NCBI GenBank assembly: GCA_026713605.1
Contig: JAPOOC010000007.1
Coordinates: forward strand, 59,418-123,417
Source: Candidatus Kaiserbacteria bacterium
GTDB lineage: Bacteria > Patescibacteriota > Minisyncoccia > Phycocordibacterales > JABAAK01
Length of the DNA: 64,000 nucleotides
Direction of reading: 5' to 3'
Part shown: piece after piece, positions 36,895-54,125 of the stretch
Layout: every line of letters begins with the position of its first letter
Numbering within the stretch: position 1 is the stretch's first letter
Made by a program: the position numbers and the translations under genes
Notes under the pieces: model-generated
Told to the model about the DNA's origin: nothing
The model's input: the letters and a program-made list of their open reading frames with translations, nothing else
The model's database searches: none

Positions 36895-37275
36895 ATGTTG
36901 TACACAACTATACTGACAGCGTTCACCCCCACTGCACATGCGGAATGCGGAGCCGGCGTTATTTTCTGCAACCCATTGGAATACGACACTGTCGGTGAAT
37001 TGTTGCTGGCATTAACAGACGGCATCACCATTATATTGATGCCCATCATCGTCCTCGCCATCGCCTACATCGGTTTCCGCATGGTACTCGCCGGAAAAGA
37101 AAAAAATGCCGACTACAGTAAGTGGAAAGACGCATTTGGGTGGTCACTGGTCGGCTTATTCCTTGTCCTTGGCGCGCGGGGCATTCTCTTTGTAATTCAA
37201 AACACCATCAACGATGTATTAGGAGATGAGTACCAGGTGGAGGTTGTAGAAAAAGCGCTGGAAGAGCAAGAATAA
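36895..37275 (+). CDS. VirB2/TrbC-like pilin paralog 1 (signal peptide, Cys pair, two TM helices)
   Basis: Signal peptide ...TPTAHA, ectodomain with 2 Cys, TM-(K/E-rich loop)-TM with conserved Trp in TM2; 126 aa. Confidence 0.5.
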   Translation: MLYTTILTAFTPTAHAECGAGVIFCNPLEYDTVGELLLALTDGITIILMPIIVLAIAYIGFRMVLAGKEKNADYSKWKDAFGWSLVGLFLVLGARGILFVIQNTINDVLGDEYQVEVVEKALEEQE

Positions 37276-37280
37276 AGAAT

Positions 37281-37628
37281 ATGAAAAAAAGTGTATATAC
37301 AAAAATACTGGCAATACCTCTGATCTGCAGTATGGCAGCGGGCGCAAGCAAAGCATACGCCCAGCCAACATGGGAGAATCTCTCGCTCAAAGGTATCGTA
37401 GACCTCGCCATCCAAGCGCTTGGCGGAGTACTTATACCACTTGCGGTAACAATCCTCTTCTTCGTATTTATATACGGCATCGTACTCTATATGCGCGCCG
37501 TAAGCAAAGGTGACAGCAACATGGCAGACCTCGCCAAGAAGCGCCTCCTCTATGGCATCATCGTCCTCTTCGCCGTTTCATCCCTTTGGGGCTTCGTGTA
37601 CCTCCTCCGCAACTTGTTCACCGGATAA
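37281..37628 (+). CDS. VirB2/TrbC-like pilin paralog 2
   Basis: Signal peptide ...SKAYA, then TM - basic loop (SKGDSNMADLAKKR) - TM with Trp; 115 aa. Confidence 0.5.
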   Translation: MKKSVYTKILAIPLICSMAAGASKAYAQPTWENLSLKGIVDLAIQALGGVLIPLAVTILFFVFIYGIVLYMRAVSKGDSNMADLAKKRLLYGIIVLFAVSSLWGFVYLLRNLFTG

Positions 37629-37683: not shown

Positions 37684-38232
37684 TTAAAAATGTTTCCCCC
37701 ACGAGAGCTTTCTCACCTCTCGCTTCAAATACTCTCCACAGCAAAGCGTTGCTCTACAGTGGGAGTGGGGGATCACATTACGGATACGCCGCTCTTTCTG
37801 CAACTGCCTCACCAGTGCATCCAGAGAGGCAACCTGTGCTTTAGTCGGCCGATGCTTTGAGAAGTCACCAGCCAAGCATACCGCAACGGAATGCTTGTTG
37901 ACACGCCAGTTACCGGCGTGGTGACCAACATCATCCGGGTCACGAACCTTCCACACCTTGCCGTTCGGTGTGATCAGGTAATGATAGGCAATGTGCAATC
38001 CGGCACTCTTGCCCATCTTCCGAAATTTCCGTCTGTGCAGACGGCTAATTTCTGCCGTCACCTGCTTGATGTCATTGCTTGCCACACCAGCGGTGTGGTG
38101 CACCACAATAGTCGTGATGGCACGGCGCGTACCACCAAGTAATGAATCGCCTCCTCTGCGCGCACCGCCACAGCCATACAGCCAAAAAGCGGTGGCAATA
38201 CAAAACAGGAAAAAGAAAACAAATTTCCTCAT
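37684..38232 (-). CDS. N-acetylmuramoyl-L-alanine amidase (Amidase_2/PGRP domain) lipoprotein
   Basis: Start set at MRKFVFFFLFCIATAFWLYGC (lipobox LYGC); Amidase_2 motifs VVHHTAGV...HHAGNW...HSVAVCLAGDF; 182 aa. Confidence 0.8.
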   Translation of the reverse strand: MRKFVFFFLFCIATAFWLYGCGGARRGGDSLLGGTRRAITTIVVHHTAGVASNDIKQVTAEISRLHRRKFRKMGKSAGLHIAYHYLITPNGKVWKVRDPDDVGHHAGNWRVNKHSVAVCLAGDFSKHRPTKAQVASLDALVRQLQKERRIRNVIPHSHCRATLCCGEYLKREVRKLSWGKHF

Positions 38233-38299
38233 ATTGAGAACCTCCTCGAATTCAAACCCACACCATGTACTTACATAATAAAGCAAAGATAGATGGTGT

Positions 38300-38742
38300 G
38301 TCAATAAAAAAGCGCACAATGGATTAGTATGCCCATGTGTGCGCTAAAAGAAGAATACCCCGACACAGTGTCGGGGTATTATGGTTGATCCAATTATAAT
38401 TTACTCTTTACTTCCCTGCACGATGGCTGGTCGATAGAAAGTGCGAGGTCAGTGGCGTTGGCGCGCCCTTCCTGATGCACTTAGCAAGGGAGTTTTTTTC
38501 AAATATAAAAATTCAATCACGGGAATAAGTGAGCCAGAGAACCATCACTTATTGATCACCTATGATCTAGGATCTGACGGGGAGCATGATCTTCTCCATC
38601 TGAGGATCTTTCGGTGCAAAGCCATGAGCACCTATTCAATCATCAGCAGACAGGAAAACCATCTCGGCATCAAATCCTGTGGTAGGGAGCAGGGTCCTGA
38701 AACGCAGGATTACCTCACGTCTCCCGACCACTGATAGCACTA
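38300..38742 (-). ncRNA. Candidate ~440-nt non-coding transcript defined by promoter and twin terminators
   Basis: Minus-strand promoter TTGACA (38772-38777) - 17 nt - TATAGT (38749-38754); two consecutive minus-strand intrinsic terminators at 38356-38383 and 38311-38343 (the latter followed by U6AUU); no ORF >20 aa on that strand; many internal hairpins. Confidence 0.4.
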
Positions 38743-38748
38743 TAGCAC

Positions 38749-38777
38749 TTGCCGTTCTTTTTGTCAACCCTATGATA
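38749..38777 (-). promoter_or_regulatory. Near-consensus sigma-70-type promoter on the minus strand
   Basis: -35 TTGACA, 17-nt spacer, -10 TATAGT (read on minus strand). Confidence 0.5.
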
Positions 38778-38879
38778 TAACTACACTACCAGCAAGATTA
38801 TTTGTAAAATATGCGGTAGAAAAGCAAAGGATTTTTAAGAAAATCACCCGCAATTTTTTCCACATACCTGTTTCAAGAT

Positions 38880-39458
38880 GTGAAAAAGCAGGGTATACTC
38901 AAAATAAGTATGAGTAGTATACACAACCGCAAAACAATAAGCAAGGTCTTGTACGGTGCGGGCATTATCATCATAAGCATAGCATTCCTTTTCACTACCT
39001 CACAGTATGTAGCACATGCCCATACAGGCACAAACTTTGCAGCCATTGAACACTGTGCGGGATCTGACACACATGTACACCCATCAGTAAGTGATACACC
39101 CATATGTAGCGGGACTTTAACCTATGCAATAAGCAACTTTTACGAAGGGGCAAATGTGTTTGCGGCTCTCCTACAGACATTGGTAGGCATTGTGGTAACC
39201 GCCGCATTCTTTTACTTTTTCTGGAATTTGGTCAAATATATCCGAGATGAGGAAGGGAAAGACGAGGCAAAAACCAAGATGGGCTATTCATTAGGGGCAA
39301 TTTTTGTCATTGTAACGCTGTGGGGCATTATTGCCTTTGTGCGGGGAATTTTAGGAATTAATACCGAAGATGCAGTTAACACTATTGATATACCCAGAGT
39401 AAACTTCATTAAGGATGATGGCACGGTAATAGAAGAGATTACAGTAGAAGAAGAATAG
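38880..39458 (+). CDS. VirB2/TrbC-like pilin paralog 3
   Basis: Long signal/TM leader ...VAHAHT, ectodomain with 2 Cys, TM (AAFFYFFWNLVKYIR) - charged loop - TM (LGAIFVIVTLWGII); true start may be Met at 38910. Confidence 0.5.
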   Translation: MKKQGILKISMSSIHNRKTISKVLYGAGIIIISIAFLFTTSQYVAHAHTGTNFAAIEHCAGSDTHVHPSVSDTPICSGTLTYAISNFYEGANVFAALLQTLVGIVVTAAFFYFFWNLVKYIRDEEGKDEAKTKMGYSLGAIFVIVTLWGIIAFVRGILGINTEDAVNTIDIPRVNFIKDDGTVIEEITVEEE

Positions 39459-39467
39459 TTCGTAACC

Positions 39468-39821
39468 ATGCTAATATTCTCGTACGGTACGGTTTTTGCA
39501 GACACAGCGAATGAAAGCTCTGCGTTGCAAGAGGTAAATAGGGTGCTGAACCTATTTGATAGTTTTTCTGTAGTGATAGAAGTGCTGATCGTCATAGTCA
39601 CAATCCTTGTTTTCTTGTACTTTTTCTGGGGTTTAGTAGAGTATATTCGCAAAAACGATGCGACACTTGAGGAGGCAAAAAAAAAGATTGCGTGGGGAGT
39701 GTTAGGGATATTTGTATTAGTGAGTATGTGGGGACTGATTTACTCCCTCCGCATCTCAGTGCTCGGCTCAAAAGACACCCCAGATCCAAATATAGAATTC
39801 CGAAAAGTAGAGTCGCTCTAA
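39468..39821 (+). CDS. VirB2/TrbC-like pilin paralog 4
   Basis: TM (LVFLYFFWGLVEYIR) - loop (KNDATLEEAKKK) - TM (IAWGVLGIFVLVSMWGLI); closest to paralog 3. Confidence 0.5.
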   Translation: MLIFSYGTVFADTANESSALQEVNRVLNLFDSFSVVIEVLIVIVTILVFLYFFWGLVEYIRKNDATLEEAKKKIAWGVLGIFVLVSMWGLIYSLRISVLGSKDTPDPNIEFRKVESL

Positions 39822-39850
39822 CCGCATAAAACCCGGTATACTAAACCTAT

Positions 39851-40156
39851 ATGCTCACATACGCCCTCTCAGCAAAAGAAATAGCCAACAACCTCTTTGA
39901 CCACATCGTCAACCCGCTAATGGCAGGCATGCTCTTCATCGCCATCCTCTTTTTCATCATCATCGCGGTAAAACTCATAGCTGGCGCAGAATCAACGGAA
40001 AGAAAAGACCTCTTCACCAAGCTCGGCTGGAGTATTGCTGGCATTTTCATCATCACCTCCGTCTGGACCATCATCGCTTTTGTCAGCAGGGTAGCAGAGT
40101 CAGACATCAAAACATCCCTATACCACTCCGCAGAAATCGCACCACAGTTGACATAA
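39851..40156 (+). CDS. VirB2/TrbC-like pilin paralog 5
   Basis: TM (MLFIAILFFIIIAVKLIAG) - loop (AESTERKDLFTK) - TM (LGWSIAGIFIITSVWTII); 101 aa. Confidence 0.5.
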   Translation: MLTYALSAKEIANNLFDHIVNPLMAGMLFIAILFFIIIAVKLIAGAESTERKDLFTKLGWSIAGIFIITSVWTIIAFVSRVAESDIKTSLYHSAEIAPQLT

Positions 40157-53630: not shown

Positions 53631-53711
53631 GCCGGAGTGGCGGAACTGGTATACGCGCACGACTTAAAATCGTGTACCTCTGGTATGCGGGTTCGACTCC
53701 CGCCTCCGGCA
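53631..53711 (+). tRNA. tRNA-Leu (anticodon UAA), long variable arm
   Basis: GCCGGAG-TG-GCG-GAACTGGTATA-CGC-G-CACGA-CTTAAAA-TCGTG-variable-GCGGG-TTCGACT-CCCGC-CTCCGGC-A. Confidence 0.85.
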
Positions 53712-53961
53712 CTTGTTAGTTCCGCCACCCGTGGCGTCTAGTATTCTGCACCAATCAGAGATTGGTGGCACGGGTATACGCGCACGACTTAAAATCGTGT
53801 ACCTCTGGTATGCGGGTTCGACCCCCGCCTCCGGCACTTGTTAGTTCCGCCACCCGTGGCGTCTAGTATTCTGCACCAATCAGAGATTGGTGGCACGGGT
53901 ATACGCGCACGACTTAAAATCGTGTACCTCTGGTATGCGGGTTCGACTCCCGCCTTCGGCA
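53712..53961 (+). repeat. Two tandem ~120-bp units, each = conserved spacer + 3' two-thirds of tRNA-Leu(UAA)
   Basis: Spacer CTTGTTAGTTCCGCCACCCGTGGCGTCTAGTATTCTGCACCAATCAGAGATTGGTG then GCACGGGTATACGCGCACGACTTAAAATCGTG...CCTCCGGCA; second unit carries an acceptor SNP (CCTTCGGCA). Confidence 0.8.
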
Positions 53962-54125
53962 CAGCAAAAAACACCACACCCCCACAAAATTACTTCATTA
54001 ACAGCATCGTTTTCCCACCACCACCCTTTTCTCCATCCCACACTTCGCAAGGTAACAAAGCGGGGGATCACCACCTGTCCTCACTAGAACTTAGGTATAA
54101 TTTTCAATGTTATACTTTAAATATC

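Follow-up and report, generated by a model that had tools for sequence, protein, structure and literature searches.

The window analysed here, a 64-kb stretch of DNA (64,000 nucleotides of contig JAPOOC010000007.1), belongs to a genome of Candidatus Kaiserbacteria/Paceibacterota, in the candidate phyla radiation (CPR), and the closest species-representative genomes are Candidatus Paceibacterota metagenome-assembled genomes (MAGs) with chromosomes of 0.66-0.70 Mb. To our knowledge, the CPR/Patescibacteria, with genomes of about 0.7 Mb, have almost no characterised non-coding RNAs. The part of the window that was inspected (37900-39100; all coordinates are window positions) carries, between a divergently oriented pilin-like gene and a gene for an N-acetylmuramoyl-L-alanine amidase, a gap in which a predicted promoter is followed by a conserved, strongly folding sequence and two predicted terminators. 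This element, which lies on the minus strand as does the amidase gene, is taken with a probability of about 60% to be an independent gene for an abundant, trans-acting structured non-coding RNA of an undescribed family, designated "type A". The features that delimit it and the gene that follows are listed below.

38739..38767, minus strand: predicted promoter P1, with -35 hexamer TTGACA (38767-38762), a 17-nt spacer ending in TGC (extended -10 TG at 38747-38746) and -10 hexamer TATAGT (38744-38739)
38346..38735, minus strand: type-A structured RNA; column 1 of the alignment is 38735 and the 3' end is placed at the U-tract of T1
38346..38380, minus strand: predicted terminator T1, a perfect 12-13-bp stem AAUACCCCGACAC/GUGUCGGGGUAUU (38380-38354) and then CUUCUUUU
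38305..38344, minus strand: predicted terminator T2, a stem GCGCACA(CAUGG)..(CCAU)UGUGCGC (38344-38312) and then UUUUUUAUU
38275..38304, minus strand: predicted amidase-gene promoter P2 (TTGACA-18-TATTAT), with the -35 directly adjoining the U-tract of T2
37684..38232, minus strand: N-acetylmuramoyl-L-alanine amidase (Amidase_2) gene, downstream of the RNA; Pfam PF01510, E 2.2e-22; 182 aa, ATG start

In a promoter scan, P1 matched the sigma-70-type consensus at 11/12 positions and carried in addition the extended -10 TG. The pattern TTGACA-N16-19-TATAGT occurs once in the window, against 0.02 occurrences expected by chance. Only seven promoters in the whole window score at least 11/12, and P1 is the sole one among them that has an extended -10 and no open reading frame (ORF) ahead of it. 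With hexamers spaced within the 16-18 nt range, an occurrence above chance and conservation in relatives, P1 presents the sequence features of a sigma-70-type promoter. The original prediction for this stretch had described the same TTGACA-17-TATAGT element correctly, but had placed it at 38777..38749, that is, 10 nt too high.

Both terminators consist of a G+C-rich hairpin followed immediately by a run of U, which is the definition of intrinsic (Rho-independent) terminators, and both are stable when folded alone, with a minimum free energy (MFE) of -18.6 kcal/mol (z -5.6) for T1 and of -17.4 kcal/mol (z -5.2) for T2. T2 escaped a simple terminator scanner, which did call P1, P2 and T1, because its loop is long. 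The two consecutive terminators originally predicted on the minus strand are therefore present, as is the second promoter said to follow T2 directly, except that the spacer of the latter measures 18 rather than 17 nt. Transcription would start at about 38732 and end at T1 or T2 (approximately 38346 and 38306, respectively), yielding a discrete RNA of about 387 nt in the first case and about 425 nt in the second, both shorter than the transcript of about 440 nt first proposed.

Syntenic relatives and fold of the type-A RNA

Homologues of the locus were all reached through the amidase, by a genome scan (L006, L007), a protein search (14 homologues, 63-80% identity) and contig look-ups (L008-L017, L058, L059), and contigs with an identical amidase were uninformative because the gap is identical in them too. 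The collection amounts to 18 syntenic loci (17 plus L058), 13 of which are distinct, giving 14 distinct sequences with the window; the amidases of these 14 are only 49-87% identical. The order of the locus is the same in all relatives: an opposite-strand pilin-like gene, a gap of 570-760 bp, the amidase, more pilin-like genes, a gene for a solute-binding protein and gyrA. The P1 motif, TTGACAAA-N11-14-TGCTATAGTG-NNNN-CAG (spacer part N12/13), is found exactly once in each of 17 syntenic loci, and L058 has the same promoter except for one base of the -10, TATATT. Each of the 14 distinct loci displays a near-identical promoter in front of an ORF-free and strongly folding transcript of 300-470 nt. 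Eight distinct sequences align over the whole transcript and define type A (the window, L006, L008, L009, L010, L014, L059 and L015), with a mean column identity of 67%; the RNA region of L011 is identical to that of L010 and was not counted separately.

A protein-coding reading of the gap was rejected. ORFs on the sense strand reach 31 aa at most with alternative start codons, or 43 aa if the start is placed inside the -35 hexamer, which is longer than the approximately 20 aa initially reported, and none of them is conserved. An ORF listing of the 14 distinct sequences revealed no conserved frame on either strand, the longest ORFs differing in strand, frame, position and length, and thus no small protein shared across the homologues was found that could have spoken for a coding function. 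Gene callers placed ORFs in the gap at just three loci, on differing strands and at differing positions, and left the gap without a called gene on five contigs with an identical region. A 97-aa ORF on the plus strand (38441..38734), antisense to the RNA, had looked spurious from the start, and this view is upheld, since it has no Pfam match, is not called on any of the identical contigs and is broken in every relative.

On the minus strand the region folds with an MFE of -135.6 kcal/mol (z -4.35), against a z of -2.96 for the antisense (plus) strand. As a control that was not fitted to any structure, a plain MAFFT alignment of seven sequences was submitted to RNAalifold, which predicted 73 pairs, 40 of them with compensatory changes. 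A covariance model of the rod-like domain H2 (R1), built from three sequences, recovered exactly one copy at each type-A locus, including one in the window, and none at the other loci. On the R1 alignment, the 36 pairs of H2 are formed in 94.5% of cells and 24/36 have changed on both sides; none of 500 shuffles (0/500) reached the observed values, and slid controls were 36-52% paired. For the complete RNA an alignment was curated (A7), which combined MAFFT blocks for H1, H3, H4 and T1 with the R1 alignment for H2, H5 and the register of the H2 loop of the window being placed by hand and gaps being written as N so that columns stayed fixed. The resulting structure has 116 pairs over the eight sequences, with 94.3% of cells paired (38-45% when slid) and 61/116 pairs changed on both sides (13-15 when slid, 28.8 when shuffled), counts that are inflated because A7 was fitted to the structure and in part hand-placed; none of 500 shuffles matched the observed structure on any of five measures. 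Compensatory substitution and the lack of a conserved reading frame, the two marks of a structured non-coding RNA, are thus both present.

The fold comprises five covarying helical domains, namely H1, the 110-nt rod H2, H3, and H5 enclosing H4, and two candidate pseudoknots (PK1 and PK2). From 5' to 3' its elements are:

38679..38731, minus strand: H1, a 5' branched hairpin with a GUGGU..ACCAC outer stem, GGGAG/CUCCC and a CCUG/CAGG tip
38569..38678, minus strand: H2, a 110-nt irregular rod with apical loop UCAUGGCUUU
38620..38625, minus strand: 5' partner of PK1, AUGGCU in the H2 apical loop; UGGUUGGUUG in relatives
38568, minus strand: junction, a single unpaired A; flanked by the final two bases of H2 and the opening base of H3, it makes up a conserved CUAG
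38515..38567, minus strand: H3, with outer stem, internal loop GGUGAUCA, inner stem and a 16-nt loop ending in a near-invariant CUGGCUC
38554..38557, minus strand: 5' partner of PK2, GAUC in the H3 internal loop; GGUC in relatives
38494..38514, minus strand: unpaired A/U-rich linker, GAAUUUUUAUAUUUGAAAAAA; GAAUUCUUAUUUUUGAAAUU in relatives; a conserved block in alignments A3 and A7
38484..38493, minus strand: 5' strand of H5, ACUCCCUUGC, pairing with 38410-38419
38441..38480, minus strand: H4, a hairpin with a conserved 7-nt loop, CGACCAU in relatives
38421..38440, minus strand: C/A-rich strand with conserved UUUCUAUCGACCAGCCAUCG, lying with H4 within H5
38423..38428, minus strand: 3' partner of PK1, AGCCAU in the C/A-rich strand; CGACCAACCA in relatives
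38410..38419, minus strand: 3' strand of H5, GCAGGGAAGU
38381..38409, minus strand: tail, containing GGAUC
38387..38390, minus strand: 3' partner of PK2, GAUC in the tail; GACC in relatives

Pairing is conserved in all these domains. Helices 1-2 of H1 are paired in 92% and 100% of cells, with six pairs changed on both sides, and the segment between H1 and CUAG folds individually into a rod of 110-125 nt in each of the eight type-A sequences. In H3 (helices 10 and 12) 10/16 pairs have changed on both sides, as have 7/10 in H5 (helices 13-14, aligned by hand) and 6/11 in the T1 stem (helix 17, 98% paired), while helices 15-16 of H4 are 97% and 100% paired. A different fold of H1, obtained with RNAalifold on a re-blocked alignment, was dropped in favour of the alternative that bears compensatory changes. 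A covariance model of the H4/H5 module was given up, since MAFFT aligns the H5 strands inconsistently and the more distant bodies share no sequence. Among the local hairpins pointed out in the original prediction, GGUGC..GCACC corresponds to the tip of H2, whereas GAUCA-UAGG-UGAUC exists in the sequence but is less likely to form, as it shares nucleotides with the 5' side of the covarying outer stem of H3. The site between H3 and the A/U-rich linker is a variable expansion site as judged from the alignment, with an extra hairpin of 20-31 nt in L009 (2660-2695), L014 (2690-2715) and, at the same position, L059.

PK1 would join the tip of H2 to the C/A-rich strand between H4 and H5. In six sequences UGGUUGGUUG is complementary to CGACCAACCA over 9-10 bp, and L015 retains GUUGG/CCAAC; in the window a change of U to C in the loop is matched by one of A to G in the strand, giving a compensating C-G pair, and 95.5% of cells are paired. 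PK2 (helix 11) would connect the internal loop of H3 with the 3' tail and is paired in 32/32 cells, with one compensatory change, A-U in the window versus G-C. Both long-range pairings are plausible on these grounds, and the same complementarities could also act between molecules rather than within one.

For comparison with described RNAs, the 4227 covariance models of Rfam 15 were run at the gathering threshold on the window and at E <= 10 on 38200-38900 and on nine relatives. The first search returned six tRNAs elsewhere in the window and nothing at the RNA locus. In 38200-38900 (701 nt) only chance-level scores were obtained at E <= 10, of 11-22 bits against thresholds of 40-130, the models concerned (rli31, rimP leader, trpB motif) falling on the terminators. 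The nine relatives (L006, L007, L009, L012, L013, L015, L016, L017 and L058) likewise gave nothing above chance level, with no match in the RNA regions of L006, L009 and L015 or of the non-type-A loci L007, L012, L013, L017 and L058. ARAGORN detected eight tRNAs and no transfer-messenger RNA (tmRNA) in the window, and no Rfam tmRNA model matched. The proposal of a novel structured RNA made in the original prediction, together with the family search and covariation analysis it suggested, has therefore stood up: no Rfam family, ydaO included, matches at E <= 10, no tmRNA was found, and covariation across the eight type-A sequences is strong in both the curated (61/116) and the unfitted (40/73) alignment. 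No RNA of this kind was described in the literature searched on non-coding RNAs of CPR, Patescibacteria and Kaiserbacteria.

Syntenic loci with unrelated RNA bodies

Six of the syntenic loci (L007, L012, L058, L013, L016 and L017) are not of type A. No similarity was detected between the type-A profile and these six bodies with nhmmer, nor among the six in an all-against-all blastn comparison; what still matches is the promoter, together with the first 35-40 nt in the case of L007, L012 and L058. All six nevertheless have folds far more stable than those of dinucleotide-shuffled sequences (z between -3.0 and -5.1).

The RNA type does not track the flanking genes. L007 (non-A) and L014 (type A) share 88.6% DNA identity over 3.5 kb counted from 48 nt inside the amidase gene, and their amidase proteins are 87% identical. 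A dissimilar tract in which only the promoter matches extends from the conserved core of the pilin-like gene to amidase codon 16-19 (L007 4003-4938 versus L014 1983-3058), taking in the N-terminal domain of the pilin-like protein and the first 16-19 codons of the amidase, with its signal peptide. The pair L012 and L008 shows the same pattern of tracts, with flanks about 79% identical. Moreover, the N-terminal domain of the pilin-like protein co-segregates with the RNA type: ..SIHN..SQH.AHAH..EHC..H.HP..ICGGT.. occurs in all type-A loci, and L007, L012 and L058 have a different domain in common. Such a mosaic may arise if the whole tract recombines as deeply diverged alleles, or the RNA body may be an exchangeable cargo behind a fixed promoter. 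The same promoter followed by unrelated RNA bodies between flanks that are about 88% identical represents an unusual mode of evolution for a structured RNA locus.

One way to account for the mosaic is to suppose that no specific RNA function exists, the gap being fast-recombining spacer DNA flanked by the amidase and a variable pilin-like gene, its promoter mainly feeding read-through and its structure being incidental. The replacement of bodies between such similar flanks, and a dissimilar tract that spans the pilin-like N-terminal domain and the amidase signal peptide, would agree with a spacer. Incidental structure is, on the other hand, difficult to reconcile with 61 type-A pairs that changed on both sides with pairing kept, with the good folding of the six non-type-A bodies, and with the retention of 300-470 non-coding nt at this position by genomes of 0.65-0.85 Mb, making this explanation a very improbable one. 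A region of about 0.5 kb is also unlikely to be idle in a genome of about 0.7 Mb that keeps for it one of its window's seven best promoters and a covarying fold with candidate pseudoknots.

The same facts can be given a functional meaning, in which the locus would belong to a fast-recombining host-interaction module made up of the variable pilin-like N-terminal domain, the fixed strong promoter, the exchangeable structured RNA and the secreted amidase. The RNA would then represent a new class of large pseudoknotted, CPR-specific RNA with an elaborate task, whether as scaffold of a ribonucleoprotein, as ribozyme or as an RNA that assembles with itself, with the bodies of types B to E as functional alleles under diversifying selection. 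This broader proposal is tentative and judged rather unlikely. The mosaic pattern could inform how the surface and host-interaction modules of episymbionts diversify.

Independent gene, leader or diverged known RNA

In the preferred interpretation, that of an independent RNA gene, the near-invariant sigma-70-type promoter P1 would drive an RNA from about 38732 to T1/T2 that accumulates at a high level, its fold being compacted by PK1 and PK2. The RNA would have its role in trans, most likely in binding proteins or as a scaffold, and the contacts would be made by its near-invariant unpaired elements: the (U)CUGGCUC loop of H3, the GAAUUCUUA linker, the CGACCAU loop of H4 and the UAAGUGGACC motif. 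Leakage through the terminators would supply at most a minor share of amidase transcription in this genome.

It could be expected, given the position of the RNA, that it regulates the amidase instead. Structured leaders such as ydaO precede cell-wall hydrolase genes, and a riboswitch-like leader gating the amidase had been put forward for this locus. In that scheme, a ligand or factor such as a signal related to the cell wall would be sensed by the large fold, which would set the share of transcription that continues past T1/T2 into the amidase gene. In accordance with a leader, all 14 distinct loci have the RNA ahead of a co-oriented amidase gene, and the linkage is invariable. It is, however, partly an effect of ascertainment, because every homologue was found via the amidase. 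The P2 promoter is conserved in eight loci (the window, L006, L008, L009, L010, L014, L059 and L013), and a second hairpin with a U-run comparable to T2 occurs in the window and in L006, L008, L009, L010, L014 and L059, which also have P2. In the window and its seven P2-bearing relatives, this near-consensus promoter located after the terminators would bypass any control exerted by the leader, and the amidase would not depend on the leader's promoter. No P2 was seen in L007, L012, L015, L016, L017 and L058. In L015, L016, L017, L058 and L007, which have no evident second promoter, 20-60 nt separate a terminator from the ribosome-binding site of the amidase gene, which probably depends there on read-through, and a leader may apply to relatives such as these.

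An attenuator should in addition have a conserved alternative pairing that competes with the terminator. None was found: the best upstream partner of either arm of T1 falls at a different alignment position in each of the eight type-A sequences (-8.5 to -15 kcal/mol). All Rfam riboswitch models, that of ydaO/c-di-AMP among them, were silent at E <= 10. The approximately 340 nt that precede the terminator also far exceed the size of the riboswitch aptamers known to us. Compared with ydaO (c-di-AMP) and other hydrolase leaders, type A shares with them a location ahead of a co-oriented peptidoglycan amidase gene and an intrinsic terminator at its end, and differs in matching no model, in having no conserved antiterminator, in its second terminator and separate amidase promoter, and in being far larger. 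A leader is accordingly unlikely in this genome, where no conserved antiterminator exists and the amidase has its own conserved promoter, and the leader originally envisaged finds no support here. Two other targets of the RNA were considered and rejected: with the amidase 5' untranslated region (5'UTR) only non-specific G-rich/C-rich duplexes at varying positions were obtained, and complementarity to the divergent pilin-like mRNA amounted to chance repeats of 11-14 nt.

The organisation of the locus resembles that of stable-RNA units such as those of rRNA, tRNA and the ssrS type, which carry tandem terminators. Shared traits are the consensus-like promoter, its extended -10, the insulation of the next gene by two consecutive intrinsic terminators and the lack of an ORF, but the type-A product falls in none of the known stable RNA classes. 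A diverged housekeeping RNA (RNase P RNA, tmRNA or signal recognition particle (SRP) RNA) would fit the size, strong promoter, candidate pseudoknots and single copy seen here. None of the corresponding Rfam models, including RF00010/RF00011 for RNase P, matches at E <= 10 in ten homologues, ARAGORN finds no tmRNA, the 5' and 3' ends do not form a P1-type pairing, and no P4 consensus (GGAAAGUCC), T-arm or SRP helix-8 motif could be seen by eye. A housekeeping RNA is close to being out of the question; the body is also replaced in close relatives, which is implausible for an RNA that is essential and universal.

A further candidate is a highly diverged functional analogue of 6S/Ms1, an abundant RNA that binds RNA polymerase and whose position and fold are conserved when its sequence is not. 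The RNA has the strongest promoter of the region, it appears as a stable structured transcript containing the long rod H2, and it can be presumed to be abundant. Between lineages its sequence is no longer recognisable, synteny and promoter being conserved, a pattern reported also for Ms1 and 6S RNAs, which had to be located through synteny and structure, with no sequence similarity left between genera (PMC9130861). A protein gene follows directly, and 6S RNA genes, too, often share a transcript with the protein gene behind them, for example ygfA (PMC9130861). Nevertheless, the Rfam 6S models (RF00013 included) have no match at E <= 10, and the end-to-end rod with central bubble is missing: the 5' and 3' ends form no closing stem, the former being the local hairpin H1 and the latter a terminator, and H2 contains small internal loops only, with no large central bubble. 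At about 390 nt, type A is also about twice as long as 6S RNA (approximately 160-200 nt) and has four extra domains. Kinship of function with 6S/Ms1 is therefore considered improbable.

Type A comes closest to the group of large, structured orphan RNAs of bacteria, represented in Rfam by OLE, GOLLD, ROOL and raiA, which it resembles in its length of several hundred nucleotides, its multi-domain covarying fold, its candidate long-range pairings, its untranslated nature, its restriction to a lineage and its lack of an obvious function. The covariance models of the four gave no match. Type A matches none of them in sequence or structure, occurs in CPR and is bounded by a near-invariant consensus promoter and tandem terminators; it is also smaller than OLE, GOLLD and ROOL, with a different helix layout. 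It is thus a new family within a known category, a member of none of the families described. Large bacterial RNAs with complex conserved folds are rare, and those solved have usually turned out to be ribozymes, ribonucleoprotein cores or elaborate regulators. The type-A RNA is of above-average interest for its size, for how strongly it covaries, for the candidate pseudoknots, for its occurrence in a CPR host and for the mosaic way in which the locus evolves, and the alignment and structure suffice for a covariance model with which these genomes can be annotated.

Several points weigh against the independent trans-acting gene. The invariable linkage of RNA and amidase also fits a role in cis, and in the P2-less relatives the terminator immediately precedes the amidase ribosome-binding site. 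The type-A family is narrow, with its eight distinct sequences, and the fold seems dispensable at the locus because six syntenic loci carry bodies without detectable similarity to it. Apart from the inflated A7 pair counts, the support for each of PK1 and PK2 consists of conserved complementarity and a single compensatory event, in both cases located in the window sequence. Finally, the start, the 3' ends and the abundance of the RNA are deduced from sequence.

Neighbouring genes and other observations

The 182-aa amidase gene is called on eight contigs. Its 5'UTR of 35-40 nt contains GAGGAGG before the ATG and, adjacent to but outside the RNA, a further motif:

38248..38266, minus strand: motif AUGGUGUGGGUUUGAAUUC of the amidase 5'UTR

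This motif, AUGGUGUGGG(G)UUUGAAUUC, sits between P2 and the ribosome-binding site and has no Rfam match. It is kept in L006, L008, L009, L010 and L014, and also in L013 despite the unalignable RNA upstream, and is absent from L059.

The divergent upstream gene (38880-39458, plus strand) and four further small genes nearby encode T4SS_pilin (PF18895) proteins. The RNA and its amidase neighbour lie within this group, with two of the five genes to one side of them and three to the other (36895-37628; 38880-40156), an arrangement kept in all relatives, and after this cluster come the solute-binding protein gene and then gyrA. The mechanically delimited ORF of the upstream gene begins at GTG 38880, and its true start is probably ATG 38910, because the relatives begin with M(N/D)SIHN and contig L002 has a 182-aa call. 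Its N-terminal domain contains a His/Cys-rich motif, HAH..EHC..HxHP..IC.GT, common to all type-A loci.

Searches beyond the syntenic loci yielded no new members. When metagenomes were scanned with the conserved promoter motif, none of the 40 loci obtained was related. Most were mRNA promoters, with one unrelated short RNA family among them, and the four matches of this motif in viral contigs were likewise unrelated. A pattern internal to the RNA gave seven matches in viral contigs, all attributed to chance, and R1 found nothing in them. The short RNA, a transcript of about 85 nt preceded by the same promoter consensus, recurs beside tRNA clusters in metagenome contigs L020, L037, L038, L044, L047 and L054; it reads AGAUUCCGAGGCUUAAGCAUGGAAACAUGACUUCGGCGUUGGAAU..GGGGGGUACCGUAAGGCACCCCCCUUCUUUU, with a hairpin and a GC-rich terminator, and corresponds to no Rfam family at the gathering threshold.

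Elsewhere in the window (53631-53962, plus strand), three genes for tRNA-Leu(TAA) are called by ARAGORN in tandem, at intervals of about 123 nt. Only the first reaches the Rfam gathering score for tRNA; the second and third may have degenerated, or may represent variants whose long arm is unusual.

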